Positions 40,732 through 61,321 of a stretch of 64,000 bases of DNA are shown in pieces (position 1 is the stretch's first letter; each line of letters opens with the position of its first letter). Below the pieces are notes generated by a model. It ran no database searches, was not told the DNA's origin, and saw only the letters and a list, made by a program, of their open reading frames with translations. Source of the stretch: an uncultured Brevinematales bacterium (GTDB lineage Bacteria > Spirochaetota > Brevinematia > Brevinematales > CAZQBT01); the NCBI GenBank assembly GCA_964591955.1, contig CAZQBT010000005.1:6192-70191 (forward strand), given 5' to 3'. Position numbers and translations under genes: made by a program.

Positions 40732-42455
40732 GTAAAACATTTGCATTAGTTACGGCGTTTATTTTTACCGCTTTTTTCACCGTCAATTTATACTCAAGTT
40801 ATCTAACTATTGATACTAAAGAACTTATCTTTTCTTTGGATAGTCGAACCGGAAGGTTTTATATTGAAAACCCGGCTGCAAGTTCAAGAGAGCTTCAATA
40901 TCTGCTATTCAAGGATAATCCCCCGTCTTCTTATCCGATTCTAATACTTAACGGGCAACCCTATCGCCTGAGCGACAGGAATGTCAAAACCAAACAAACC
41001 TTTACCCGCGATAATAACAGGATATACGGAGTTTTTTCTATTCAGGATGTTGACTTTGAAATAAGCTATACCCTAACCAACTCTCCCGCTTCGGATGGAG
41101 GAGACACAGTCCTATGTATAGTTTCTATCAAAAACAACACCCAGTTGGATATCAGGGCGGGGGTGAGGTTTCTATTTGATACCGTGTATAACGAAAGACG
41201 GGATGAACCGAGGATTTATCTTTCAAGCACGCGTCGCGTTGATAACGAATTACTGATACCCCAACAAACCCTTACGGATTTTGTATTCTGCGGGGAGTAT
41301 GATGCTTTCACCCGTCAATTCAAACAAGGGCTTTTTATATATCCATACGTTAATAATTACCGCGCGCACTCGATAATCATAGGTAATTGGCGTAAACTTG
41401 ACGAGACAGAATTAGACTACGATGTAAGCCCTCGCGACCGCTTTCGATATAACCGCTTTGGCGTTCAGGATGCGGCGGTTGCCGTGTTTTTCAGGGGCGT
41501 TCCGATTAAACCGAATGAAATCGTAAATATCGGCGCTGTGCTTTCAAAAAACCACTTTGAGTTCAGCGACTTCCTGACAAAACCCGTTGTCGTTGTTCCT
41601 ACATTGGATAAAAAAGAAGATACGGAAAAACCCGAAGAAAAAATTAAGGTTACGAACGACGTTAAGGTAGTTGAAACCGCAAAACCCGACAGACCTGAAA
41701 CCACAAAGCCTAAAGAAGATAAAACAGAACCCGTAAAAGCGGATAAGTTGCCTATTGAAACGATACTTACACAGGTGTTTTATACTACAAACGGAAAAGT
41801 CGATTATGATATGATGAAACGTCAACAGGAAATGGCTTTGCTTAAAACCCAGATTGATGCGTTAGACCGTCTTGTGCAACTTATAGAGCGTATAGATACG
41901 TTTATGACCAATCCCGAAGCCGTCAGACATACAATTATAACTCAAAAAACCGAACCGGTTACCACTGAACCCGAAAAAACCAAAGTAGAACCGGCGACTG
42001 AAGAAGCAAAGACGGAAGAAACAAAGAAAGAATATTCCAAAATAAGAGATATTCCCGAATATATACCATCAAAAGAACTTCCATCCGCAGATAGAGAAGA
42101 CGTAAAAGAAGTTATGGATAAAACTATCTCGGAATATGAAAAAAGATTTGCCGAACAAAAAGCTCATTATGAAAGACTTATTCGTGAACAGGACGAAGGG
42201 TTTAAAAAGATATACGACGAATACGATGAAAAACTAAGCGGGGTCAAAGAAATACGCGGAAGAAGCGAACGGATAAAAAAACTCGATACCACAATTGACG
42301 AGTTAAACCAAAAAATCCGTCTCATAGAACAACTCAAAGGGCTTCGTCTTGATTTTTCGAGTATGCCTGATGGCAGGATTTCCCAAATCAAAGAAGAAAT
42401 TGATATGATAGAAATGCAATTATTAAGATTAAGCATAAAATCCGGGGACAAGTAA
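40728..42455 (+). CDS. Hypothetical secreted/membrane-anchored protein with Pro/Thr/Lys/Glu-rich linker and long coiled coil
   Basis: ATGA overlap with the TPR gene. N-terminal hydrophobic helix, a roughly 270-aa globular domain of unknown family, TEKPEEK/KPKEDKTEP-type linker and a heptad-like C-terminus. Confidence 0.5.
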   Translation: MSKTFALVTAFIFTAFFTVNLYSSYLTIDTKELIFSLDSRTGRFYIENPAASSRELQYLLFKDNPPSSYPILILNGQPYRLSDRNVKTKQTFTRDNNRIYGVFSIQDVDFEISYTLTNSPASDGGDTVLCIVSIKNNTQLDIRAGVRFLFDTVYNERRDEPRIYLSSTRRVDNELLIPQQTLTDFVFCGEYDAFTRQFKQGLFIYPYVNNYRAHSIIIGNWRKLDETELDYDVSPRDRFRYNRFGVQDAAVAVFFRGVPIKPNEIVNIGAVLSKNHFEFSDFLTKPVVVVPTLDKKEDTEKPEEKIKVTNDVKVVETAKPDRPETTKPKEDKTEPVKADKLPIETILTQVFYTTNGKVDYDMMKRQQEMALLKTQIDALDRLVQLIERIDTFMTNPEAVRHTIITQKTEPVTTEPEKTKVEPATEEAKTEETKKEYSKIRDIPEYIPSKELPSADREDVKEVMDKTISEYEKRFAEQKAHYERLIREQDEGFKKIYDEYDEKLSGVKEIRGRSERIKKLDTTIDELNQKIRLIEQLKGLRLDFSSMPDGRISQIKEEIDMIEMQLLRLSIKSGDK

Positions 42456-49204: not shown

Positions 49205-49867
49205 TTAGTAAAAATGATTAGCCGCTTTAACCATCCTGTCCATAATAGACAAAGCCTTGTCTTTGTCGATAAATTTTGCGGTCTCATTCCATTTGATACC
49301 ATAGTCTTCTATAAAAAAATTGTCGCGTCCCTGAAATAATTCAATAAGCGCCGACTGCAACCTCGTGTCGGACAAAAAAACCTTTATCTGCTCTTTTTTC
49401 TTACCGCTTACGGAAATCAGTTTTTCCAAGATTGGATTATGCGGCACGTTTACAAAAAATTTCTTGAATAACTTTTTACCGAAATTTGTAAAAAAATCAG
49501 CCCTCTTTATTTTCATATCATAATCATACCTTTTTTTAAAAGGCAAAAAAATGTTCATTAACTCGACGGAATGATTAGAACCGCTTTTTTGGGTTGACCG
49601 ATAGATGTAAAAATCATAATCCTGATATTTGCCCGAAATAATACCTATAAACATCTGTGAAATCATTTTTTTCCAGAATGGAGTTTCAAGCAACTTTATA
49701 AAGCTGTGTATATCTTTTGCCCCTAAGTGCCTGCCTAAAATTATATAGCCAAGCGAATCGGCATTCCCGGTAAACGCCTCAACTCCCGGCTTAAACGTCA
49801 TACCTAATTCGGATGCAAGTCTCTGCCACGTTTGCACATCATCCTTTCTAATAAATATTCCTCTCAT
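49205..49867 (-). CDS. Hypothetical protein
   Basis: 220-aa ORF, Lys/Phe-rich. No family recognised. Confidence 0.4.
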   Translation of the reverse strand: MRGIFIRKDDVQTWQRLASELGMTFKPGVEAFTGNADSLGYIILGRHLGAKDIHSFIKLLETPFWKKMISQMFIGIISGKYQDYDFYIYRSTQKSGSNHSVELMNIFLPFKKRYDYDMKIKRADFFTNFGKKLFKKFFVNVPHNPILEKLISVSGKKKEQIKVFLSDTRLQSALIELFQGRDNFFIEDYGIKWNETAKFIDKDKALSIMDRMVKAANHFY

Positions 49868-49973
49868 ATCAATCCCCCTGTCTTTTAATAATTATAACAA
49901 AACGCGCGGGCAATATCAAATATCCTTCAGCTAAAAACGGAAAAAATTAATTTGAAAAAATCCGCCTTTAAAC

Positions 49974-50041
49974 TTGACAAAACCTGTCGGATTATATATT
50001 ATATACTATCAAGTCTATGGAGATAGTATTATATAGGAGGA
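49974..50041 (+). promoter_or_regulatory. Promoter, inverted-repeat operator and leader of the DsrE-like/TusA operon (copy 1 of a duplicated control region)
   Basis: TTGACA 49974-49979; -10 TATTAT 49997-50002. Perfect 8-bp inverted repeat ATACTATC (50003-50010) / GATAGTAT (50022-50029). AGGAGGAG RBS; ATG 50045. 63 of 77 nt are identical to 52925-53001 (hand alignment, no gaps). Confidence 0.55.
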
Positions 50042-50044
50042 GAT

Positions 50045-50524
50045 ATGAACGGGAAAAAATTATCAATAATAGCTTTCAGCGGGGATTTCGATAAAGCAAT
50101 CGCCGCGTTCACATTGGCAACAGGCGCAGCCGCGGTCGGCTATGAGGTCAATCTCTTTTTTACTTTTTGGGGTTTCAACATAATCAAGCGTAAAAAGGGG
50201 AGAAGGTTTACAGGCAAGGGATTTATGGCGAGGATGTTTAACTTCCTTATGGGCGGATTTCGCAACCTCCCTCTAAGCAGGTTGAATTTCGTGGGAGCAA
50301 GCCCCCGCCTTATGACAGGCCTTATGAAAAAACGCAACGTCGCTACATTAAAAGAGCTTGTATCATCGGCTGTCCAACTCGGCGTAAATTTCTACGCCTG
50401 TGAGATGTCTATGGTGATACTCGGATTAAAACTTGAGGATTTAATCCCGGAAATAAAACCAGACATTCTCGGTGTCGCAAAGTTTCTTGAGATTTCCGAC
50501 GGAGGCGAGACCTTATTTATCTAA
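50045..50524 (+). CDS. DsrE/DsrF/DrsH-like (DrsE_2) family protein
   Basis: KKLSIIAFSGDFDKAIAAFTLATGAAAVGYEVNLFFTFWGFNIIKRKK...NFYACEMS... matches my recollection of the DrsE_2 family, including the conserved Cys in ACEMS. Confidence 0.7.
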   Translation: MNGKKLSIIAFSGDFDKAIAAFTLATGAAAVGYEVNLFFTFWGFNIIKRKKGRRFTGKGFMARMFNFLMGGFRNLPLSRLNFVGASPRLMTGLMKKRNVATLKELVSSAVQLGVNFYACEMSMVILGLKLEDLIPEIKPDILGVAKFLEISDGGETLFI

Positions 50525-50537
50525 AACGGAGGACACT

Positions 50538-50762
50538 ATGAAACAATACAAATTGGATATAACATCGGAACACTGCCCGATGACTTTTGTCAAAACGAGA
50601 ATCGAATTGGATAAATTGCAGGACGGCGACCGCCTTGAGGTTATCCTGCGCGAGGGTGAACCGTTGGATAATGTCCCTAAAGCGGCTAAAGAACAGGGTT
50701 ATCGCGTGTTGAAGGTATATCATATAGATAAGGACATACACGGCATCCTGATAGAAAAGTAG
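50538..50762 (+). CDS. TusA/SirA-like sulfurtransferase
   Basis: 74 aa. MKQYKLDITSEHCPMTFVKTRIELDKLQDGDRLEVILREGEPLDNVPKAAKEQGYRV carries the active-site CP-x-P/T motif and the TusA fold pattern. GGAGG 6 nt upstream of ATG 50538. Confidence 0.85.
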   Translation: MKQYKLDITSEHCPMTFVKTRIELDKLQDGDRLEVILREGEPLDNVPKAAKEQGYRVLKVYHIDKDIHGILIEK

Positions 50763-50867
50763 TATCAAGCAATCGGCTGTTTAATTTTATATTGCGGAAT
50801 GGGGAAATGCCGTAATTCTACGATATTCACAGGCAACAACCCTTCCCGTCAATCACGCAAAATACCG

Positions 50868-50903
50868 GCGGGGCGCTCTTAAAAATTAGCTTCAGCGCCC
50901 CGC
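50868..50903 (+). terminator. GC-rich hairpin after the DsrE-like/TusA operon
   Basis: GCGGGGCGCT (50868-50877) pairs with AGCGCCCCGC (50894-50903): 10-bp stem, 16-nt loop. No clear U-tract. Confidence 0.45.
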
Positions 50904-50949
50904 TCTCCTCTAAAAAATCAAACCCTATTTAAAAAAAATTCATTCATAC

Positions 50950-50978
50950 TTGACTTGTAGGATTAAATATGATAGAAT
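50950..50978 (+). promoter_or_regulatory. Sigma-70-type promoter of the porin / FMN-binding protein genes
   Basis: TTGACT (50950-50955), 17-nt spacer, TAGAAT (50973-50978). AGGAGG RBS; ATG 51022. Confidence 0.45.
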
Positions 50979-51021
50979 AGACTAACTTTATTTGTTTAGA
51001 CTAAAAAACAGGAGGTCATAT

Positions 51022-52161
51022 ATGCAGAAGCATATTATTTTTTGGTTCGCGCTGGCTCTAATGACGGCAAGTTTTGTCCCGTTATCGGCGCAAAGTTCGG
51101 ATAATATCGGGCTTGAGGATGAGGATTTCGCCTATTCTTCATCTCAAGGCGTTCATCTCGGCGGTTACGGTGAACTTCACTATAACTACAAATCAACCGA
51201 AACCGGAGAGGTATCTTCGGTTTTCGATTTCCACCGTTTCGTGATTTTTTTCGGCTACACTTTTAATGAACAGTGGTCGATGTTTTCCGAAATTGAGATT
51301 GAGCATAATTTTGTGCAGGACGGTCAGGGTTATCTTGCCTTGGAGCAGGCTTATCTCGCATACCAGCCGTTTGACTGGATGGGTTTTCAGGTCGGCGTTC
51401 TTTTGCCGAGTGTCGGGATAATAAACGAAACTCACGAACCCCCTACTTTCCTGTCGGTCGAACGCCCTATCTACTCAAGAAACATTATCCCAACCACATG
51501 GTATGGTAACGGCGTAAGTGTTTACGGTAACATTTCGGGACTACAATACCGTCTTGTTGCTATGGAGGGATTGGACGGGTCTAAATTCAACAAGCAGACC
51601 GGTATCCGCTCCGGACGGGGAAGAGGATTCTATCACTTTGATAATGCAAAATACCTTTTGTATAATCTCGCCCTGGACTATACCGGTATCAGCGGTTTGC
51701 GTATCGGCGGCTCGGCTACATATAATAACTCATTAGTAGAAACGGACGGGATTAACGATATTAATAATCCCATACTCCTGCTTGAATCACATATCCAATT
51801 CAAGTTTAGGGGGCTTATTACAACCTTTGAGTTCGGACACATAAGCTACGGCAACCCCGATGTTTTGGATTTGCAAGCCTCTTTCGGCTATTATCTTGAG
51901 GCGGGATATAATATAGGTTATCTTTTCGGATGGCGCGCACAGCTAATCCCGTTTGTCAGATGGAGTCATATCGACACCGCTTGGAAAACTTACAGCGGAA
52001 CGGACGAAGGACAAAAAAGACTGAAACTTATGGGAGGTATCAGCTTCTTGCCTATAGAAAATATTTCTCTAAAAATTGATTTCGCAAACGAAATAAAAGG
52101 CTCGTCCCCGAATACTTCCCAAACTTTCCTTTTGAATATCGGTATGGGTTATATGATTTAA
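51022..52161 (+). CDS. Outer-membrane porin-like beta-barrel protein
   Basis: Signal peptide MQKHIIFWFALALMTASFVPLSAQ. GGYGELHYNY...FDFHRFVIFFGYTF...FSEIEIEH... plus alternating beta-strand pattern, as in OprO/P-like or uncharacterised anion porins. Start set to ATG 51022 (the track start is a TTG). Confidence 0.5.
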   Translation: MQKHIIFWFALALMTASFVPLSAQSSDNIGLEDEDFAYSSSQGVHLGGYGELHYNYKSTETGEVSSVFDFHRFVIFFGYTFNEQWSMFSEIEIEHNFVQDGQGYLALEQAYLAYQPFDWMGFQVGVLLPSVGIINETHEPPTFLSVERPIYSRNIIPTTWYGNGVSVYGNISGLQYRLVAMEGLDGSKFNKQTGIRSGRGRGFYHFDNAKYLLYNLALDYTGISGLRIGGSATYNNSLVETDGINDINNPILLLESHIQFKFRGLITTFEFGHISYGNPDVLDLQASFGYYLEAGYNIGYLFGWRAQLIPFVRWSHIDTAWKTYSGTDEGQKRLKLMGGISFLPIENISLKIDFANEIKGSSPNTSQTFLLNIGMGYMI

Positions 52162-52190
52162 CCCGTTTTGACACCGTTATTTCCTCCGAT

Positions 52191-52233
52191 GTAACCGCAC
52201 TACCCGCTTTTAACGGCGAAAAGGTGCGGTTAC
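52191..52233 (+). other. 10-bp perfect stem-loop in the porin / FMN-binding intergenic region
   Basis: GTAACCGCAC (52191-52200) pairs with GTGCGGTTAC (52224-52233); 23-nt loop. Not followed by a U-tract. Confidence 0.35.
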
Positions 52234-52282
52234 AAACGGAGTATTTATGAAGTCTCAAATTTATAATTTACGGAGAATAACT

Positions 52283-52813
52283 ATGAAAAGAATTTCCTTA
52301 GCAATAATGATAACCTGTTTTGCATCTGTTCCATCGTGGGCTTCCATAAACAGAGAAGCGAGAAAAGCGATAACCGAAAGCGTATCCGAAAACGCGGAGG
52401 TCGGTTTTAAAAAAACATATATCGGCGACGATTTAAAAACACTAATTGAAACAAAATCCCAATCAAGTTTCCTGCAAAACTATATATATTTCAGTCCGGT
52501 TACTTTGGATGGCGTTATAGTAAACTATGCGATAATCGACAGCGCAATGGAAAGAACCGCCCCGTTTACATTTCTTGTCCTGTTTACTCCCGACTTGAAA
52601 ATCCGAAACGTAACGGTAATCCGTTATATATCCCGCTACGGAAGCGGTATCCGCGATTCACGATGGCTTAAACAGTTTGAGGGCAAAACCGCCGGTTCGG
52701 GTTTTCGTCTTAACAGTAACATAGATTCCATTAGCGGCGCTACAATCTCCGCACGCTCAATCGCCGATGCATTGGAAAGACTCTCGCTTTTAATCCCGCA
52801 TCTGGTAAAATAA
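52283..52813 (+). CDS. Periplasmic FMN-binding domain protein (NqrC/RnfG/NosR-type FMN_bind)
   Basis: Signal peptide MKRISLAIMITCFASVPSWA. C-terminal ...WLKQFEGKT...NIDSISGATISARSI contains the S-G-A-T motif whose Thr is the flavinylation site in this domain family. Confidence 0.7.
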   Translation: MKRISLAIMITCFASVPSWASINREARKAITESVSENAEVGFKKTYIGDDLKTLIETKSQSSFLQNYIYFSPVTLDGVIVNYAIIDSAMERTAPFTFLVLFTPDLKIRNVTVIRYISRYGSGIRDSRWLKQFEGKTAGSGFRLNSNIDSISGATISARSIADALERLSLLIPHLVK

Positions 52814-52927
52814 AATTTGCCTGTATAATTTTTTCCTCAATCCGTTATATGCAATATTCCCGTTTTCTATACGCTTATCCAAAATATATTCAGCTTGATT
52901 TTTTTTTTCAAAAGCACAACTTAAAAC

Positions 52928-52995
52928 TTGACAAAAACTATCTGATTATGTATAATATACTATCAATACTACGGTAATAATAGTATTTAGGAGGA
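52928..52995 (+). promoter_or_regulatory. Promoter, inverted repeat and leader of the ThiS-MetY operon (copy 2 of the duplicated control region)
   Basis: TTGACA 52928-52933, 17-nt spacer, TATAAT 52951-52956. ATACTATC 52957-52964, with its partial complement ATAGTAT at 52980-52986. AGGAGGAG RBS; ATG 52999. The distance from -35 to ATG is the same as in copy 1 (71 nt). Confidence 0.55.
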
Positions 52996-52998
52996 GTT

Positions 52999-54441
52999 AT
53001 GAATATTAAAATCAACGGAAAAATCGAGCCTATCCCGCAAGATAGTATCACTGTATCGGAACTTTTAGAACTCAAGCAGGTTAAATATCCCGATATGGTT
53101 TCGGTTCAGCTTAACGGTGAGTTTGTAGAAAGAATCCTGTTCGATAAAACGACGGTTAATGAGGATGATGAGTTTGAGTTCCTGTATTTTATGGGGGGAG
53201 GGTCACAAGGATGGGATTTTGCAACCCGCGCTATCCATTCCTGCCCGCCAATCGAATCGACAAATAACCCGACTGTCCCTCCGATATATCAAAGTGCGGC
53301 TTTCAGCTACGACACAGCCGAAGAAATAGAAACGGTATTTGACGGCAGGGGCTTCGGTTATATCTACTCCCGTATCTCCAACCCAACGGTTACCGCATTT
53401 GAGTATAAAATCAACTCGCTTGAAAACGGTGTCGGAACGGTCGCCGCCGCTTCGGGTATGTCGGCAATCCTTAATTCCATACTTGCACTTGCCGGCAGCG
53501 GGGAGGAGATTATCGCAAGCAAAAGTTTGTTCAGCGGAACGCGCTCGCTTTTCGACGAGGTTTTAAGCAAGCTCGGTATCAAGGTCATATACGCCGATAT
53601 TAACGATACCGCTACCCTCCAATCTCTCATAACCGATAAAACCCGTCTCGTTTTTTGCGAGACAATCGGAAACCCTCTTTTGGACATAACGGATTTTTTA
53701 AAACTTGCGGATTTGGCGCATAAACACCGTATCCCTCTTATAGCCGACAGCACACTCACAACCCCATATCTTTTCAAGGCAAAGGATTTCGGGGTTGATA
53801 TAGTAGTCCATTCGGCGACCAAATATCTTACCGGCAACGGGACCGCCGTTGGCGGGGTAATAACCGATTTAGGCAATTTTGACTGGAATAATTCCCTCTC
53901 AGGCGATATCCGCGATAATGCTAAAAATTTCGGGCAATTCGCGTTTTTGTCCGTTCTTCGTAAAAAAATCCTGCAAAACACGGGAGGGGTTCTTTCACCC
54001 TTTAACGCATTTCTTCATAACCTCGGCGTTGAAACTCTATCTCTCAGGATGGAACGGCATTGCACAAACGCTTCGGAGTTAGCTCTCTATTTAAGCAATC
54101 ACAAAAAAGTTAAAAAAATTACCTACCCCGGCTTGAATAAAAATCCTTACTACGCACTCGCAAAAAATCAATTTAGCGGAAAATTCGGGGCGCTTTTGAA
54201 TTTCTCGCTTGAAAGCAGGGAGGATTGCTTCAAGTTTATATCCCGCTTAAAAATGACCAAAAATCTCGCCAACCTCGGCGACTCAAAAACTATGGTTATA
54301 CATCCCGCCTCAACCCTGTTTTCATCACTACCGAAAGAACATCGCCTCTCAATAGGCATAACCGATGAGATGATTCGGGTATCCATAGGAATTGAGGCAA
54401 TCAGAGACATTATTGAAGATTTTGAAAACGCTTTAAGCTAA
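52999..54441 (+). CDS. Fusion protein: ThiS/MoaD-like sulfur-carrier domain (aa 1-68, ends FMGGG) plus O-acetylhomoserine sulfhydrylase-type PLP enzyme (MetY-like)
   Basis: N-terminus MNIKINGKIEPIPQDSITVSELLELKQVKYPDMVSVQLNGEFVERILFDKTTVNEDDEFEFLYFMGGG aligns by eye with ThiS (…ING…TV.ELL…V.LNGE.V.R…L.D.D..E…GG). The rest is ATRAIHS...YSRISNPT...VVHSATKYLTGNG (PLP Lys)...GDSKTMVIHPASTLFS, the Cys/Met-metabolism PLP family. Confidence 0.8.
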   Translation: MNIKINGKIEPIPQDSITVSELLELKQVKYPDMVSVQLNGEFVERILFDKTTVNEDDEFEFLYFMGGGSQGWDFATRAIHSCPPIESTNNPTVPPIYQSAAFSYDTAEEIETVFDGRGFGYIYSRISNPTVTAFEYKINSLENGVGTVAAASGMSAILNSILALAGSGEEIIASKSLFSGTRSLFDEVLSKLGIKVIYADINDTATLQSLITDKTRLVFCETIGNPLLDITDFLKLADLAHKHRIPLIADSTLTTPYLFKAKDFGVDIVVHSATKYLTGNGTAVGGVITDLGNFDWNNSLSGDIRDNAKNFGQFAFLSVLRKKILQNTGGVLSPFNAFLHNLGVETLSLRMERHCTNASELALYLSNHKKVKKITYPGLNKNPYYALAKNQFSGKFGALLNFSLESREDCFKFISRLKMTKNLANLGDSKTMVIHPASTLFSSLPKEHRLSIGITDEMIRVSIGIEAIRDIIEDFENALS

Positions 54442-54451
54442 GGAGGATTTT

Positions 54452-55255
54452 ATGGAATTAAACGATAAGCAAATAGAACGTTACAGCCGCAATATTATAT
54501 TAAAGGAAGTCGGCGGGAAAGGGCAAACAAAACTTTTAGAATCGAAGGTGCTTGTTATCGGTGCCGGAGGGTTAGGCGCGCCGGCTTCTTTATACCTTGC
54601 CGCTTCGGGTGTGGGAACTATCGGTATTGCCGACGGAGATGCCGTTGATATTACCAATCTTCAACGCCAGATTATCCATTTCACACCGGATATCGGCAAG
54701 CCTAAGGTAACTTCCGCTAAAGAAAAAATTATCGCGCTTAACCCCGATGTAAATGTCATTACCTATAATGACAGGATAACCGCCGACAATATCGCATCGG
54801 TAATACAAGACTACGATTTTATTATCGATGCTACCGACAACTTCCCGACAAAGTTTCTTATTAACGATGCCTGTGTGCTTAACAAAAAGGCGTTTTCTCA
54901 CGGCGGAATACTTCGCTTTGACGGGCAAACGCTAACCCATACGCCGGGCAATGCATGTTACCGATGCGTATTCGACAGTCCGCCTCCTAAAGGGCTTGTG
55001 CCTACTTGTAGTCAGGCGGGAATTCTCGGCGCGGTAGCGGGAATTCTCGGTTCAATACAGGCGGCGGAAGCGCTTAAATTTATACTCGGCACGGGGGACT
55101 TATTAATCAACAGGCTTCTTGTGATGAACGCACTTGATATGAGCTTTAGAACCGTTGATTTAAAACGAAACCCCAAGTGTAAAATATGCGGAAATTCGCC
55201 TGAAATTACGGAATTAACCGATTACGAAGAACCATCCTGCGATTTAAGGAGGTAG
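54452..55255 (+). CDS. ThiF/MoeB/HesA-type adenylyltransferase (E1-like), no rhodanese domain
   Basis: RYSRNIILKEVGGKGQTKLLESKVLVIGAGGLGAPASLYLAASGVG...DNFPTKFLINDAC..., with CYRC and CKIC as a Zn-binding pair. Confidence 0.88.
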   Translation: MELNDKQIERYSRNIILKEVGGKGQTKLLESKVLVIGAGGLGAPASLYLAASGVGTIGIADGDAVDITNLQRQIIHFTPDIGKPKVTSAKEKIIALNPDVNVITYNDRITADNIASVIQDYDFIIDATDNFPTKFLINDACVLNKKAFSHGGILRFDGQTLTHTPGNACYRCVFDSPPPKGLVPTCSQAGILGAVAGILGSIQAAEALKFILGTGDLLINRLLVMNALDMSFRTVDLKRNPKCKICGNSPEITELTDYEEPSCDLRR

Positions 55256-55257
55256 CC

Positions 55258-55650
55258 GTGATAAAAATCAAAAAAGAGATTGTAGAAGCTATACATAAAC
55301 AGGGAAAAAACGAACTCCCAAATGAAGCCTGCGGTTATCTCGCCGCAAAAGACGGGGTAATAGTAAAAGCCTTTCCTATGACTAACGCCGATAAAAGTCC
55401 CGAACATTTTTCCTTTATTCCAAAGGAGCAGTTCGACGTTGTCAGGAAGGCAAGGGAGGAAGGCTTGGAGATGATTGCGATATATCATACCCATCCCGCT
55501 ACCCCGGCGCGGATGTCAAACGAGGATATCCGTCTTGCTTACGACACAAACACTCTCTATGTGATATACTCGCTGAAGGATAATGATATAAAATGTTTCA
55601 GCACGGACGGAGATAAAAAGATAAAAACAATCGATTTGGAGGTGATTTAA
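55258..55650 (+). CDS. JAMM/MPN+ metallopeptidase (Mec+/HcyD-like)
   Basis: NEACGYL (catalytic Glu) and HTHPATPARMSNED, which equals H-x-H-x7-S-x2-D. GTG start 2 nt after the E1 stop, with an AAGGAGG RBS. Confidence 0.88.
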   Translation: MIKIKKEIVEAIHKQGKNELPNEACGYLAAKDGVIVKAFPMTNADKSPEHFSFIPKEQFDVVRKAREEGLEMIAIYHTHPATPARMSNEDIRLAYDTNTLYVIYSLKDNDIKCFSTDGDKKIKTIDLEVI

Positions 55651-55651
55651 G

Positions 55652-57859
55652 ATGAGTATATTCAGATTGCCCGACAGCTTAGATAAAGATATAGCGGAAT
55701 ACGCAAGACTGGTTAAAGGCTATCTAAACGGAACAATCGACAAGGCACAACTCAAGGCTTTTCGCGTTCCTATGGGTATATACGAACAACGCGAAAACGA
55801 AAAGTATATGATGAGGTTTGTTATCCCCGGCGGTGATTTATCACCTATGCAATTATACGCCTTGGCGGAGATTGCTAAAAAATATTCGCCGTCAGACCTG
55901 CATATTACCACCAGAGGCGATATGCAATTACACGGAATAAATCTGCCCGACACTATTGTTATTATCAAAAAGCTGCGGACTATCGGATTAACGACACGCG
56001 GCGGAGGCGGCAATACCGTCAGAAATATTCTTATAGACTACCTTTCGGGATTAGACCCCGAAGAGGCTTTTGATGTCGCGCCTTATGCTCAGGAATTGGC
56101 AAGCAGGTTGATAAGCGAACCGGATTCGTTTACTCTCCCGCGAAAATTCAAGATAGCATTTTCAAGCAGTCCCGAGGACAGGGGCAAGGCTACGGTAAAC
56201 GACCTCGGATTTATTGCCGAAACCGATAAAAACGGCAACCGAGGGTTTAAGGTTTATATCGGCGGAGGGATGGGGTTAAAACCGCGCACGGGGATAGTCC
56301 TGTTTGATTTTGCGCCGGATACCGAGGTGTATAATATCGCAAAAGCCGCAAAAGACTTTTTCAATAAATACGGAAACCGTAAAAACAAACACGCCGCAAG
56401 GTTAAGATTTGTCTTATCCAAGCTCGGCGAAAATGATTTTCTTTCCAAATTCAGCGAGGAATACGAACGGGTCAAGGCTTTGAGTTTCCCGCCTTTTGAT
56501 ATTAAACCGGTGGAAACGCCCGGTGATTACGGTTATATATTAATACCGTTATTCTTAGGCGACATTTCCCCCGAATCCGCGGAGAATATTGCCGAAATCG
56601 CTATGCAGTTTGAAACCGCATCAATACGTTTAACATCACAACAAAACCTTATTATCAAAGGTATCCCGAATGAGAGTATTAAAGATATAAGAGAGCAAAT
56701 TCCGAATACGGGTATCCCCGGGCAATTCCCGTCGTTTATAGGCAACGCCGTTGCCTGTGCGGGAGCAAGCACCTGCCGTTTGGGAATATGTCTTTCGCGC
56801 AACCTTTTATCCGCTATTAAGGATATAACAAGCGAAAAAGCCTACCCCAATACGGATGATTTATCGCTCAAAATTTCGGGATGTCCTAACACCTGCGGAC
56901 AGCATATAATCGCCGATATAGGATTTTTCGGCAGGGGAGTGCGTTTCGGGAAAAGCAACGCAATCGCCCCGGCTTATAACGTGGTATTGGGCGGTCATCT
57001 CGGAAACGGGGTTTCCTCGCTTGCCGAAAATATCGGGGTTATTGCCGCTAAAAAAATCCCCGAATTTATGGGCGAGGTTTTGGGTTTTATCGGTCAAAAC
57101 CGTCTGACGGATGAGGCTTTTAGTGAGTTCATCAAGCGCGTTGGAAAAAATGAATTTACCAAAATATTGGATAAATACGGCGAAATCCCCGACATTGAGG
57201 AAAACAAGGACTATTACTATGACTGGGGCGATGATAAACCGTTTTCTATCTCCGAGAGGCTTGAGGGTGAATGTTCGGCGGGGTTGTTTGACCTTATCGA
57301 AACCGACCTGAAAACGGCTAAGGACAAACTGACGTCAAATCTTCCACGCGAGGCGCTGTATTACTCGCTTCGCGCCCTGTTAATCACCCGAGGAATAGTG
57401 CCGGGTAGTGAAAGCGAAACGGTCTCCGGGTTTAACAAATTTTTCTTAGGCAAATATATAGAACAGTCTTACGAGACGCTTATTAAAAAATTTGTCGATA
57501 GCGGGGAAATCCGCGTTAATGAAGCCGAAGATTTTTACAACCGCATAGAATGGCTATACGAACAAATGGATAACAGCCTCAAGTTTCCCGAATTAGCCCA
57601 TAACGAGGATAAAACAGATAACGCAACCGAACCAAAAGAGAATATCAAGGATTTTCGGGAAATACCGTGTCCGATGAATTTCGTTAAAGCAAAGATGGCG
57701 CTTGAAAATATCGAAATAGGCGAAAGGTTGGAAATTTATATTGATGACGGAGAGCCGATTGACAACGTCCCTCCTTCGTTACGAAACGAGGGGCATAGTA
57801 TTGTATCGCAGAAGCGAATCGGCGATTACTGGTCGATTGTAGTCGAAAGGAGGGTTTGA
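55652..57859 (+). CDS. Assimilatory-type siroheme-[4Fe-4S] sulfite reductase with C-terminal TusA-like domain
   Basis: Two NIR/SIR half-domains (…HITTRGDMQLHGI…, …IRLTSQQNLIIKGIP…). Cluster/siroheme Cys motifs are CAGASTC (C-x5-C) and CPNTC (C-x3-C). The last 72 aa, NIKDFREIPCPMNFVKAKMALENIEIGERLEIYIDDGEPIDNVPPSLRNEGHSIV..., form a TusA fold with a CP motif. Confidence 0.8.
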   Translation: MSIFRLPDSLDKDIAEYARLVKGYLNGTIDKAQLKAFRVPMGIYEQRENEKYMMRFVIPGGDLSPMQLYALAEIAKKYSPSDLHITTRGDMQLHGINLPDTIVIIKKLRTIGLTTRGGGGNTVRNILIDYLSGLDPEEAFDVAPYAQELASRLISEPDSFTLPRKFKIAFSSSPEDRGKATVNDLGFIAETDKNGNRGFKVYIGGGMGLKPRTGIVLFDFAPDTEVYNIAKAAKDFFNKYGNRKNKHAARLRFVLSKLGENDFLSKFSEEYERVKALSFPPFDIKPVETPGDYGYILIPLFLGDISPESAENIAEIAMQFETASIRLTSQQNLIIKGIPNESIKDIREQIPNTGIPGQFPSFIGNAVACAGASTCRLGICLSRNLLSAIKDITSEKAYPNTDDLSLKISGCPNTCGQHIIADIGFFGRGVRFGKSNAIAPAYNVVLGGHLGNGVSSLAENIGVIAAKKIPEFMGEVLGFIGQNRLTDEAFSEFIKRVGKNEFTKILDKYGEIPDIEENKDYYYDWGDDKPFSISERLEGECSAGLFDLIETDLKTAKDKLTSNLPREALYYSLRALLITRGIVPGSESETVSGFNKFFLGKYIEQSYETLIKKFVDSGEIRVNEAEDFYNRIEWLYEQMDNSLKFPELAHNEDKTDNATEPKENIKDFREIPCPMNFVKAKMALENIEIGERLEIYIDDGEPIDNVPPSLRNEGHSIVSQKRIGDYWSIVVERRV

Positions 57860-58314
57860 TGGCATATCCCGTATTGCTTGATATACAAAACCGCGAATGC
57901 CTTGTGGTCGGAGCGGGAAAAATCGCTTTAAAGAAAACCAAAGAACTGTTAAAGAACAAGGCGCGGGTTTTTGTTGTCGCAAAAGAGATTATGCCTGAAT
58001 TTTATGCACTTGCACGGTATCAAAATATTACCGTAAAAACCGAGTCTTTTGCACCCGACTATATTAACGGGAAATTCCTCGTTATCGCCGCTACCGATAA
58101 TCCCGCACTCAATGAATATATCTGCCGTGAGGCTTCGCTAAGGAACGTGTTGTCGAACAGCGTTTCGGGAAGGAAATACGCATCCTTTATGAACACGGCG
58201 TATTTTGGAAATAAAGATATTTTAGTCGCGGTATCATCATCCGGAAAAAATCCCAGCAAAAGCCTGAAACTGAAAAATCTGATTAAAGAATATATCGCGC
58301 AAATTCAAGGTTAA
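57859..58314 (+). CDS. Precorrin-2 dehydrogenase / sirohydrochlorin ferrochelatase (SirC/CysG N-terminal domain type)
   Basis: YPVLLDIQNRECLVVGAGKIALKKTKELL...VIAATDNPALN... is the Rossmann motif and layout of the siroheme synthase N-domain. TGATG overlap with the sulfite reductase stop. Confidence 0.7.
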   Translation: MAYPVLLDIQNRECLVVGAGKIALKKTKELLKNKARVFVVAKEIMPEFYALARYQNITVKTESFAPDYINGKFLVIAATDNPALNEYICREASLRNVLSNSVSGRKYASFMNTAYFGNKDILVAVSSSGKNPSKSLKLKNLIKEYIAQIQG

Positions 58315-58326
58315 AAGGAGATTTTT

Positions 58327-59391
58327 ATGGGTTTTCTGCTTGTCGGTTTTTCGCATAACAACTGCCCGCTTGATATAATGGAGAAAATACATATTACACC
58401 GAAAGAGCTAAGCGGCTTCTATAATGGTTTGCCGTTTAAAAGCAAGTTTTATCTCCAGACGTGTAACCGTCGCGAATTAATTGTGGACAGCGACAATCCG
58501 GTTGAGGCGGGAAATATTATCAAAGATATTATATCCGAACGGTTTAAGCTATCCCCGAAAGAAACGGAAATCCATTCCCGAATGTATATGGGCAAACAAG
58601 CGGTCAAGCATCTTTTCGGCGTTGCAACGGGGCTTAAATCCGCCGTTACCGGGGAAAAGCAAATTCTCAGCCAGATGAGGACATCATATAACGAGGCAAA
58701 AAGTATCGGGGCGCTCAGGGGTAGTCTTGACGGAGTAATACAATGGGCGCTTTTTACGGGAAAAAAAGCTCACAGGATAATGCCCGATTCCCGCTACCCC
58801 GAATCAATCGCCGAAACCGCATTGGATTTTGCCGTAAAGCATCACGGTTTATTATCTAAAAGAATTATGCTGATAGGCGCGGGGGAAACGATATACCGTA
58901 TAGCAACGGGGATAAAAAATATCAATAGCGGACTTGTTTTTGTTGCAAATCGGAATATAGATAAAGCCCGCGAACTTGCCCGCAAGACCGATAGTAAAGC
59001 TATACCGCTTTCCGATATCGGGCGGGTTATAAACGAGGTAGATATTATTTTCAGCGCGACCTCCGCGCCTCATTATATTTTGCGAAAGGAATTGCTTGCT
59101 AAAATAGACAGCCCCGTTACAATATTCGACTTGGCAATCCCCCGCGATATTGAAAGCACGGAAAATCCTCTTATAAAAGTAATGGATATTTCGGCGCTGA
59201 AAAAATATTTCAGCCTGAACTACGGTAACAGGCTTTATGAATACAAAAAGCTAAAAAAAATCGTTGATTTGGAAGTATCAAGGTGGAATTATGATTATCA
59301 GGTTAGGAACACGAAAAAGCGCTTTGGCGTTAAAACAAACGGAAGAGGCAATCCCGATTTTGAAGGAAGCTCTTGCCTCGGCGAAGTTTGA
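58327..59391 (+). CDS. hemA: Glutamyl-tRNA reductase
   Basis: LLVGFSHNNCPLDIMEKI..., the active-site YLQTCNRRE, and the NADPH-binding MLIGAGETIYRIA. It is short (354 aa), and its last 101 nt overlap the next gene in another frame. Confidence 0.85.
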   Translation: MGFLLVGFSHNNCPLDIMEKIHITPKELSGFYNGLPFKSKFYLQTCNRRELIVDSDNPVEAGNIIKDIISERFKLSPKETEIHSRMYMGKQAVKHLFGVATGLKSAVTGEKQILSQMRTSYNEAKSIGALRGSLDGVIQWALFTGKKAHRIMPDSRYPESIAETALDFAVKHHGLLSKRIMLIGAGETIYRIATGIKNINSGLVFVANRNIDKARELARKTDSKAIPLSDIGRVINEVDIIFSATSAPHYILRKELLAKIDSPVTIFDLAIPRDIESTENPLIKVMDISALKKYFSLNYGNRLYEYKKLKKIVDLEVSRWNYDYQVRNTKKRFGVKTNGRGNPDFEGSSCLGEV

Positions 59392-61321
59392 TATTATCGG
59401 TATCGACACAAGCGGCGACTTGGATAAAATATCAAGTATCAGTCAAACGGAGGGAAGCGACTTCTTTACCGATAACATAGACTCCGCGCTTTTAAACAAA
59501 ACAATAGATATTGCACTACACAGCGCCAAAGACCTCCCCGATGAATTCCCTGAAGGGATAACTGTCGCCGCTATCACCGACGGCATAGATAAACGGGACG
59601 TTCTTGTCGTAAGGCGGGACTTGGTTGATTTCCTGAAGGATAAAGATATACCAAAGAGTTTTTCAATCGCGACAAGCAGTAAGCGAAGAAAAAAGCAGAT
59701 AAGCCAATATTTCCCCGATGCCGTAATAAAAGATATTCGCGGTAATATAGAGGAAAGACTCTCGCTGTTGGATAACGGATACGCGGACGGTCTTGTAATA
59801 GCCGCGGCGGGGCTTATCAGGCTCGGACTTGAAAAACGTATATTCAAATACCTCCCGTTTACAGTCCATCCGTTACAGGGTAAACTCGCATTTTGTATCC
59901 GTGAAGACGACCTGAGCCTTAAAACCGCGCTTGAAAAGATTGATACGCGAAAGAAATGGGGAAAGGCATATCTTGTGGGAGGGGGGCCGGGCGACCCGGA
60001 ACTTATCACGGTTAAAGCCCACCGTATCCTTGAAACCGCCGATATTGTTCTTTACGATGCTCTTGTGAGCGCGGAAGTATTAAACATCATACCTAAATCC
60101 GTTACAAAAATAGAATGCGGTAAACGCAAAGGCAATCACAGCGCTTCACAGGAAGAAATTAATAATCTGATTTTCACTTATATAGAGAAAGGAAAAACCA
60201 TTGCGCGCCTGAAAGGAGGCGACCCGCTTATATTTGCAAGAGGGGGCGAGGAGATTGAATTCTTAAAAAGAAATTTTGCCGATTACGACATAGTCCCCGG
60301 CATAAGCGCAGTGCAAGGCGTATCCGCATATTGCGAAATTCCCTTAACGCGACGGGGAGTCTCCTCCTCACTGCTTCTACTGACAGGACATCCGATAGAA
60401 AGCCTTGAAGCGCCGACCCCTGATTTCGCGGGAACTATCGCTATATATATGGGTGCAACGCAAACTAAAAAAATAGCATCCCTGTTCTTTCAAAAGGGAT
60501 GGTTACCCGATACACCCGTAATTGCAGTCTCAAACGCATCGCTGTATAATCAGGAAAAACGTTATATGAAATTAATCGACTTGGCATCGTCTCAGGAAAA
60601 AATCAAAACCCCCGCCCTGCTTATTATCGGCAAGGTCGCGGAATACGGGAAAACCAAAAGCCGTTTTGAGCACAAAAAGAAAGTCCTGTTTACAGGCACC
60701 TCCCCCGATAAATACCGCGACTACGGCGAACCGGTTATCCGACCGATGATAGAACTTGCTCCGCTTGACGATAAATCAAACCTTCACAAGGCTATCCGAA
60801 ATATCAATGGATACGACGCGATAGTTTTTACATCAAAGCACGCCGTCCGGTTTTTCTTTGAGGCGTTGTATTCTTCGGAAAAGGACGCAAGGTCGCTTTC
60901 CGAGTTGCAGGTTTATTCTATCGGGAGAGTTACATCGGGAGAACTGAAAAATTACGGTATCATTCCCGACGGACAACCCGTTTTTGAAAGCGCCGAGGGC
61001 TTGATTGAATATTTTATCAAGCATAAAATCAGGAACAAAAAAATAATAATCCCGCGTTCAAATCTCGCGCACCCGGAGCTTCCCGAAGGTTTGCGAAAAA
61101 TCGGAAATTCGGTTGACACGGTGGATACATATAAAAACGTTGCCCCATCGGAAAGCCCGAACATTGACTTTGATTTTATCGATACGGTAATTTTTACATC
61201 GCCGTCCGGGGTAAAGAATTTCAAAAAGATATACAAAAACCGTTTAAAACCCGGTACCGAAATCATAACTACCGGAAAAATTACGCAACAAGAGGTGGAG
61301 AATGAAAAGATTAAGACCTGA
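59291..61321 (+). CDS. Triple fusion: porphobilinogen deaminase-like (domains 1-2 only), uroporphyrinogen-III C-methyltransferase, and uroporphyrinogen-III synthase
   Basis: aa 1-218 (HemC): IIRLGTRKSALALKQ, ALHSAKDLP, ATSSKRRKKQ, IRGNIEERL. aa 224-455 (TP_methylase/CobA): AYLVGGGPGDPELITVKA...RLKGGDPLIFARGGEE...VPGISA. aa 463-676 (HemD): ...AIVFTSKHAVRFF...VIFTSPSGVKNF. Start set to ATG 59291. Confidence 0.8.
   Translation: MIIRLGTRKSALALKQTEEAIPILKEALASAKFDIIGIDTSGDLDKISSISQTEGSDFFTDNIDSALLNKTIDIALHSAKDLPDEFPEGITVAAITDGIDKRDVLVVRRDLVDFLKDKDIPKSFSIATSSKRRKKQISQYFPDAVIKDIRGNIEERLSLLDNGYADGLVIAAAGLIRLGLEKRIFKYLPFTVHPLQGKLAFCIREDDLSLKTALEKIDTRKKWGKAYLVGGGPGDPELITVKAHRILETADIVLYDALVSAEVLNIIPKSVTKIECGKRKGNHSASQEEINNLIFTYIEKGKTIARLKGGDPLIFARGGEEIEFLKRNFADYDIVPGISAVQGVSAYCEIPLTRRGVSSSLLLLTGHPIESLEAPTPDFAGTIAIYMGATQTKKIASLFFQKGWLPDTPVIAVSNASLYNQEKRYMKLIDLASSQEKIKTPALLIIGKVAEYGKTKSRFEHKKKVLFTGTSPDKYRDYGEPVIRPMIELAPLDDKSNLHKAIRNINGYDAIVFTSKHAVRFFFEALYSSEKDARSLSELQVYSIGRVTSGELKNYGIIPDGQPVFESAEGLIEYFIKHKIRNKKIIIPRSNLAHPELPEGLRKIGNSVDTVDTYKNVAPSESPNIDFDFIDTVIFTSPSGVKNFKKIYKNRLKPGTEIITTGKITQQEVENEKIKT

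Follow-up and report, generated by a model that had tools for sequence, protein, structure and literature searches.

The window analysed here, a stretch of 64,000 nucleotides from an uncultured Brevinematales bacterium (GenBank assembly GCA_964591955.1, contig CAZQBT010000005.1, positions 6,192 to 70,191 of the forward strand), contains an uninterrupted open reading frame (ORF; positions 52999-54441, plus strand, 480 amino acids (aa)) in which a sulfur carrier of the ThiS family is joined in frame to a complete O-acetylhomoserine sulfhydrylase, MetY. The gene order is thiS-metY, thiF, a JAMM peptidase gene, sulfite reductase-TusA and then sirohaem synthesis genes (Table 1). Judging from sequence, we consider it likely that this gene is a genuine fusion of an HcyS-type carrier to MetY within an operon for homocysteine synthesis via a protein thiocarboxylate, and that the precursor is cut after G68, most likely by the JAMM enzyme of the same operon. 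We infer both the cleavage and the identity of the protease, and the proposed chemistry rests on homology to the Wolinella succinogenes system.

Pfam assigns PF02597 (ThiS) to aa 3-68, with all 76 profile positions (1-76) matched, and PF01053 (Cys_Met_Meta_PP, a pyridoxal phosphate (PLP)-dependent enzyme) to aa 76-479 with an E value of 3.7e-116. The carrier domain matches Geobacter ThiS (2K5P/3CWI) over residues 1-68 (E 1e-14) and aligns end to end with Bacillus subtilis ThiS (PDB 1TYG chain B). Residues 61-68 align exactly with FLYFMGGG in 2K5P and with the GGG that ends 1TYG_B, and G68 is therefore the homologue of the free carrier C-terminus. Among solved enzymes, the MetY domain matches W. 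succinogenes MetY (3RI6; E 4.6e-99), T. maritima MetY (7KB0; E 2.9e-99) and 8SF5 (E 4.6e-105). At the junction, the codons ATG GGG GGA GGG TCA CAA GGA TGG (53191-53214) encode M65-G66-G67-G68-S69-Q70-G71-W72. An earlier, sequence-only reading of this DNA had stated that they join the two domains with no stop and no in-frame restart, and both statements hold for the ORF: the window sequence offers no in-frame start codon (ATG, GTG or TTG) between codons 66 and approximately 140, so that MetY can be produced only as part of the fusion. In the primary product, G68 is followed by 412 residues without a stop, and the free glycine carboxylate required for adenylation is absent unless proteolysis exposes it. 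Residues G71-W72-D73-F74 correspond to residues 2-5 of standalone MetY: where a standalone MetY from a Spirochaetaceae metagenome-assembled genome (MAG; locus L039) starts MGWDFETRAVH, the window protein reads QGWDFATRAIH from residue 70. This correspondence identifies the fused frame as the true MetY frame, and by the same alignment the linker would be essentially S69 alone, with Q70 standing in place of Met1.

The fusion is genuine and not an indel artefact, because the identical 480-aa protein was predicted, beside the same neighbouring genes, on 14 contigs that come from separate samples and assemblers, and because 30 other fused homologues share an invariant LYFMGGG followed by a hypervariable junction. 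In total, 31 of the 120 closest protein clusters are fused likewise (475-498 aa, same N-terminal domain), and one fused cluster member was found on 32 contigs. Beyond GGG, the protein sequence is variable, with length differences of roughly 20 residues; each fused locus examined has its own junction DNA and its own set of Gly codons. An error of sequencing, assembly or gene calling, in which a homopolymer indel removed a stop codon, would fit the GGGGGG and TTTT runs at the junction and the observation that most relatives are split; set against the 14 contigs, the differing junction DNA of the other fused proteins and the match of QGWDFATRAIH to a true MetY N-terminus, its probability is next to negligible. 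The sequence-only reading had likewise dismissed a G-run indel, pointing out that the nearby ATG at 53211 is out of frame and runs to a stop after 18 codons, and our analysis bears this out. This ATG lies within the codons GGA-TGG (G71-W72), and its stop is located 23 codons past the GGG codons. As it follows GGAGGG and reads M-G-F, it was considered as a fossil metY start or as the trace of an error in the TTTT homopolymer; both were ruled out, GGA-TGG being genuine MetY codons by comparison with the Spirochaetaceae protein.

LYFMGGG is retained in 30 of the 31 fused homologues, which answers the question, raised by the sequence-only reading, of whether orthologues keep the glycines at the domain boundary. 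Across these 30 proteins the motif is invariant, against a median pairwise identity of 47% (minimum 27%) elsewhere in the ThiS domain, and this pattern of conservation indicates that the domain is under selection as a carrier. The exception, P0067 (L084:6001-7449), has the fused length and a different gene context; it lacks the Gly-Gly (EIYGLSDKTD), and its degenerate N-terminal domain is not recognised as ThiS by Pfam. P0067 shows what the ThiS-like domain looks like after loss of carrier function. Its gene is preceded by two further Cys_Met_Meta_PP paralogues and shares an overlap with a ThiI/PP-loop-like gene, and the contig stops beyond it. A neighbour-joining tree of MetY domains splits the fused proteins into at least six groups, with unfused proteins in between, and from this the thiS-metY fusion looks to have arisen at least six times. 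One of these groups is a deep, all-fused clade in which GGG is kept throughout, which argues that GGG has been selected long after fusion.

To place the fusion among its relatives, we built a profile from the fused ThiS domains and ran it against a single genome for each species. The cassette carrier was found in at least 585 loci from many phyla, and the gene-content figures given here refer to the best 80 loci. Among these, ThiF is encoded in 74 (58-71% identity), JAMM in 72, MetY in 65, TusA in 59 and sulfite reductase, downstream of the JAMM gene, in 46, the commonest order being thiS-metY-thiF-JAMM-SiR-TusA. Cassette loci of Campylobacterales share 50-57% (ThiS), 62% (ThiF) and 45-52% (JAMM) identity with the window.

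The JAMM protein of the window carries the motif HTHPATPARMSNED, which has the form H-x-H-x7-S-x2-D (H77-T-H79-PATPARM-S87-NE-D90); with the catalytic Glu in NEACGY (E23), the motif E...H-x-H-x7-S-x2-D is complete. The protein matches 2KKS (E 4e-24) and P. furiosus JAMM1 (5LDA; E 9e-9), and its top NCBIfam match is the haloarchaeal desampylase model, below the cut-off of that model. An intact motif was found in all 78 cassette loci checked. In all six fused loci considered (the window and five others), thiF and an intact JAMM gene lie downstream of the fused gene, so that the adjacent peptidase to which the sequence-only reading had drawn attention is well formed here and elsewhere. Comparison with the JAMM enzymes of split loci revealed no features peculiar to those of fused loci, length and motif being the same. 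As regards the substrate, an AlphaFold2 model built on a 71-sequence alignment (mean predicted local distance difference test (pLDDT) score 88.7, predicted template modelling score 0.79) is confident for both the beta-grasp (residues 1-64) and the MetY body. The pLDDT is 87-96 over aa 1-60; values under 50 occur at residues 65-67 and, within the N-terminal region of MetY, at residues 86-98. The scissile region is thus predicted to be flexible, in keeping with the exposed linker that the earlier reading had suggested looking for; the model output gives no relative orientation of the carrier and MetY domains.

C-terminal tails are not confined to fused proteins. The carrier is standalone in 78 of the best 80 loci; two of these carriers stop at GGG, and the other 76 continue for 1-14 extra residues. 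In a larger protein collection, a profile search with the ThiS domain returned standalone proteins for all of its best 120 matches, a set that serves for tail statistics and not for fusion counts, and 115 of these 120 carriers extend 1-25 residues past GGG, most often by one. The split versions that the sequence-only reading had asked about thus exist, normally as GGG-X(1-25)-stop and seldom as GGG-stop, which fits the single extra residue that it had cited for HcyS. As in the 30 fused homologues, GGG is invariant in the standalone family. Among fused proteins it is followed mostly by S or Q, among standalone ones mostly by S, Q or A, and in one Campylobacteraceae locus the carrier ends GGGA. 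Because nearly all standalone carriers have such tails, trimming after GGG seems, from sequence comparison, to be a standing requirement of the HcyS-type carrier family. Where thiS lies upstream of metY, hardly any DNA separates the two; the commonest arrangement is a stop/start overlap of 4 nt (ATGA or GTGA; 16 of 48 loci), and metY of the split relatives starts 0-10 nt past the Gly codons. We read the G-rich GGN GGN GGN codons (53194-53214 in the window) as lying where the Shine-Dalgarno sequence of metY would be expected. Such a role of the Gly codons may explain why carrier tails exist.

The same arrangement could suggest that two proteins are made from the fused frame by recoding, that is, by ribosomal frameshifting or termination at the G-run or by internal initiation. 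ATG GGG GGA GGG resembles both a slippery site and a Shine-Dalgarno sequence, the position of metY starts in split relatives is compatible with initiation at this point, and in one locus (L089) in-frame ATGs survive after GGG. However, both alternative frames of the window remain open beyond GGG, for 23 and 44 codons, and across the fused loci examined we found no conserved slippery site and no alternative frame ending near GGG, the junction DNA differing from locus to locus. The window has no in-frame start between codon 66 and approximately codon 140; M65, the sole upstream candidate, is an invariant ThiS residue with no Shine-Dalgarno-like sequence before it. Internal initiation would, moreover, leave the carrier C-terminus unfreed. 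We therefore regard recoding as very unlikely.

Several points weigh against our explanation of the fusion. Our view of the genome spans 64 kb, so a separate carrier gene elsewhere is conceivable. The MetY domain is about equally similar to the sulfide-using enzymes 7KB0 and 8SF5 and to the carrier-using 3RI6, so that its dependence on a carrier is not provable from sequence. The JAMM gene is equally present in split and fused loci, including those whose carriers need little or no trimming, and hence does not discriminate between them; mycobacterial MoaX is cut at Gly82/Ser83 by a protease reported as unidentified, and is mis-processed in E. coli (PMC4326299), so that enzymes other than JAMM may also make such a cut. 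Finally, the tree behind the count of fused groups carries no support values. The first two points would suit a fusion that is never cleaved and whose ThiS domain is a non-carrier module (docking, regulatory or a decaying relic), with the carrier encoded elsewhere or MetY using free sulfide. The degenerate domain of P0067 points in the same direction, as do the fusions of a ubiquitin-like protein (Ubl) to ThiF that Iyer et al. (2006) saw beside a separate ThiS and for which they suggested a different role of the fused domain. Yet LYFMGGG and other family-invariant residues are kept in 30 of 30 proteins from at least six lineages, at identities elsewhere in the domain down to 27%, where a relic would decay as it has in P0067. 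No second HcyS-type thiS occurs in the 64-kb window or in stretches of ~13 kb around five other fused genes, even though thiF and the JAMM gene, which would serve no purpose in the absence of a carrier, have been retained. We consider an uncleaved fusion unlikely. The points concerning JAMM and MoaX would instead be explained if a housekeeping protease or autocatalysis cut after GGG and JAMM only released homocysteine from the carrier. Against such a division of labour, homologous JAMM enzymes (DRJAMM, HvJAMM1 and PfJAMM1) cut linear Ubl-protein fusions, HcyD reportedly trims HcyS-Ala in W. succinogenes, no other peptidase is conserved in the cassette among the best 80 related loci, and Pfam detects no self-cleaving element such as an intein. 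This explanation appears improbable to us, and cleavage after G68 by the operon JAMM remains the reading that we prefer.

If this reading is correct, the 52.9-kDa precursor would be cut after G68, most probably by the operon JAMM, into a carrier of 7.8 kDa (predicted mature mass) ending in Gly-Gly-Gly and a MetY of 45.1 kDa starting at S69, a size shift that would make the fusion a convenient natural substrate for bacterial JAMM peptidases. The ThiF-like enzyme would then adenylate the freed carboxylate of the carrier, and sulfide from the sulfite reductase, possibly passed on by the TusA and DsrE2 proteins, would turn the adenylate into a thiocarboxylate. MetY would condense the carrier thiocarboxylate with O-acetylhomoserine; after an S-to-N acyl shift, JAMM would free homocysteine and regenerate the carrier.

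We propose that loss of the stop codon between the two genes costs nothing and has happened repeatedly, since thiS normally lies directly ahead of metY (often with an ATGA overlap) and the short tail needs trimming anyway. The fusion is then an extreme case of the tail, in which stop loss only lengthens the piece that is removed. A wider scenario is possible and is offered tentatively. In the HcyS branch, obligatory trimming by JAMM may have made the stop codon dispensable, and the Gly codons may double as the ribosome-binding site of the next gene, forcing the short tail and the ATGA overlap, with the result that the carrier fuses repeatedly to the downstream gene (MetY, ThiF or DsrE2). Such fusions might represent a prokaryotic counterpart of ubiquitin-fusion precursors with many origins, and the JAMM cut could both switch on MetY and set a 1:1 ratio of carrier and enzyme. 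Family-wide tails, stop/start overlaps and apparently recurrent fusions would together make a clean case of obligatory processing permitting gene fusion, which bears on the evolution of ubiquitin-type precursors.

Table 1. Features in and around the thiS-metY operon, in window coordinates.
Feature	Positions	Strand	Basis
DsrE2-like gene	50045-50524	+	Pfam
TusA gene	50538-50762	+	Pfam
Sigma-70-type promoter match, TTGACA, 17 nt, TATAAT	52928-52956	+	12/12 consensus, best in region; consensus match alone
Likely ribosome-binding site, GGAGGAG	52990-52996	+	Sequence inspection
HcyS-type ThiS sulfur-carrier domain, aa 1-68, ending FLYFMGGG	52999-53202	+	PF02597, 2K5P/3CWI, B. subtilis ThiS
Predicted processing site G67-G68 / S69 (codons GGA GGG TCA)	53197-53205	+	Invariant GGG, hypervariable sequence after it, low pLDDT
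MetY domain, aa 69-480 (412 aa)	53203-54441	+	PF01053, PDB matches
ThiF/MoeB-type E1-like adenylyltransferase (HcyF equivalent), without rhodanese domain	54452-55255	+	PF00899, E 8.2e-80
JAMM/MPN+ metallopeptidase (HcyD equivalent), candidate cutter after G68 and candidate homocysteine releaser	55258-55650	+	PF14464, E 1.1e-21
Sirohaem-type sulfite reductase with C-terminal TusA (aa 667-733), presumed sulfide source for the carrier	55652-57859	+	NIR_SIR, NIR_SIR_ferr, TusA
Precorrin-2 dehydrogenase-like gene	57856-58314	+	Pfam
Glutamyl-tRNA reductase-like gene	58327-59391	+	Pfam
HemC/methylase/HemD fusion gene	59264-61321	+	Pfam

For the ThiF-like protein, the top NCBIfam matches are the MoeB and SAMP-activating E1 models. 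TusA is fused to or follows the reductase in most related loci, and this association suggests a relay of persulfide or sulfide to the carrier. The upstream pair of DsrE2-like and TusA genes probably encodes accessory sulfur-relay proteins of the fused-carrier system; in other loci the pair is placed within the operon, between thiF and the JAMM gene. In the window it lies 2.2 kb upstream of the fused gene and has its own promoter-like site (49974-50002). Between the pair and the operon, one gene (50992-52161) encodes a 389-aa protein whose N-terminus resembles a signal peptide and which matches nothing in Pfam, and another (52247-52813) encodes a 188-aa protein with an FMN_bind domain. Downstream, we infer that the sirohaem genes supply the cofactor of the sulfite reductase. 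The last of them encodes a protein of 685 aa in which porphobilinogen deaminase, a tetrapyrrole methylase and uroporphyrinogen-III synthase are joined (HemC/CobA/HemD), and such a triple fusion also adjoins the cassette in L086. An Rfam search (E<=1) over 49800-58500 revealed no riboswitch or other known RNA, giving two chance-level matches only. A weak ThiS-like match at 42252-42401 was discarded, as it lies inside an unrelated 575-aa ORF.

Further observations concern the distribution of fused proteins. Among the best 150 matches from a search of 1.84 billion representatives, none was a fused representative of ~480 aa; fused proteins are presumably clustered there under unfused representatives, or rare. 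Genomes with a fused gene often harbour, close by, another MetY paralogue that is unfused (430-431 aa), together with cysteine-synthase-like PALP genes and a regulator of the Rrf2 family (L085, L087 and L088). This combination hints at parallel sulfide-dependent and carrier-dependent routes. Four proteins of 588-834 aa (P0243, P0252, P0282 and P0293) have a C-terminal MetY domain behind other N-terminal regions and represent different MetY fusions. The carrier itself is fused in frame to a DsrE2-like protein in a Bacteroidetes MAG (L029:6001-6678, 225 aa) and to ThiF in another locus (L062:6001-7029, 342 aa), each a single locus for which a MAG error is possible.

Annotation currently obscures these genes. 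Databases call the fused genes 'sulfur carrier protein ThiS' or 'O-acetylhomoserine (thiol)-lyase', and because each name covers one half of the fused protein and hides the other, pipelines that seek a separate carrier gene could miss the carrier. The structural-genomics entries 2K5P/3CWI and 2KKS, the closest solved relatives of the carrier and JAMM proteins of the cassette, are labelled 'thiamine-biosynthesis protein ThiS' and 'uncharacterized protein', respectively, labels that are probably misleading or uninformative. At the level of the pathway, Price et al. (2018) described it as then missing from KEGG and MetaCyc and mis-annotated in UniProt. The pathway, the trimming of carrier precursors by JAMM enzymes and carrier-enzyme fusions cut after Gly-Gly are already known. 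Measured against them, the ThiS-MetY fusion is a real but modest twist, neat and immediately testable, and not very surprising. If the proposed processing is confirmed, the principle that a carrier is excised from the enzyme it serves, which has been proven to date for MoaD-MoaE, would reach methionine biosynthesis.

The homocysteine pathway of W. succinogenes (HcyS, HcyF, HcyD and MetY; 3RI6, Tran et al., 2011) has the same components in one operon, namely a carrier, a ThiF-like protein without a rhodanese domain, a JAMM enzyme, MetY and a sulfite reductase, and its carrier is likewise made as a precursor that needs C-terminal trimming. Krishnamoorthy and Begley are said to have reported in 2011 that this operon makes homocysteine via a protein thiocarboxylate and that HcyS-Ala is trimmed by HcyD, which has a dual role. 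In the window, by contrast, the tail is an entire 412-aa MetY in place of one residue, carrier and enzyme are made 1:1 as a single polypeptide, and the sulfite reductase has a fused TusA. The MetY of W. succinogenes uses the carrier thiocarboxylate (PMC8191291), and the same operon type, including that of W. succinogenes and of G. metallireducens, was catalogued by Iyer, Burroughs and Aravind (2006; Table 1, row 4e).

The systems of QbsE/QbsD (thioquinolobactin) and CysO/Mec+ (cysteine in M. tuberculosis) also combine a ThiS/MoaD-like carrier, an E1-like enzyme and a JAB peptidase in one operon. Their peptidases, QbsD and Mec+, reportedly expose or regenerate the Gly-Gly terminus of QbsE and CysO. 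They differ from the window in that one or two residues, or an amino-acid adduct, take the place of a folded enzyme as the tail, and in their products, a siderophore and cysteine. Such sets of carrier, E1-like enzyme and JAB peptidase make up operon types 4a-4d of Iyer et al. (2006). The fusions listed in that survey are ThiS-ThiG, MoaD-MoaE, Ubl-ThiF and sulfite reductase-ThiS. We found a ThiS-MetY fusion neither there nor in the other papers that our searches returned, an incomplete literature search whose result is absence of evidence only. As in the window, a ThiS-like domain is fused to a pathway partner in ThiS-ThiG and Ubl-ThiF, and one Ubl-ThiF fusion (Pelobacter) co-occurs with an O-acetylhomoserine sulfhydrylase (Iyer et al., 2006); the Ubl-ThiF fusions differ in that they usually occur beside a separate ThiS and have been proposed to act other than as carriers.

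The sequence-only reading had compared the fusion to the ubiquitin-ribosomal protein precursors of eukaryotes. The logic of a cut after Gly-Gly is indeed alike: in UBA52, RPS27A and polyubiquitin, an N-terminal beta-grasp domain is released in this manner. However, ubiquitin is a protein modifier, its fusion partners are ribosomal proteins and not a client, and processing is mostly by cysteine deubiquitinases, so that beyond the shared fold the likeness is one of analogy only. That reading overlooked closer prokaryotic precedents, the MoaD-MoaE fusions. In these, as in the window, a beta-grasp carrier is N-terminal to its own client with a Gly-Gly boundary, Gly82/Ser83 of MoaX matching G68/S69 here. 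Cleavage of M. tuberculosis MoaX between these residues is needed for activity, and Gly81 is needed for recognition (PMC4326299). The cutter in Deinococcus is a JAMM enzyme: D. radiodurans DRJAMM cuts the MoaD-MoaE fusion DR2607, and HvJAMM1 cuts linear SAMP fusions (PMC8832034). The differences lie in the pathway (molybdenum cofactor), in the carrier (MoaD) and client (MoaE), and in the JAMM gene, which is outside the operon. The window protein consists of ThiS and a PLP-dependent MetY, which are not homologous to the MoaD and MoaE components. By analogy, ThiS-MetY would thus work like the MoaX/DR2607 class without descending from it.

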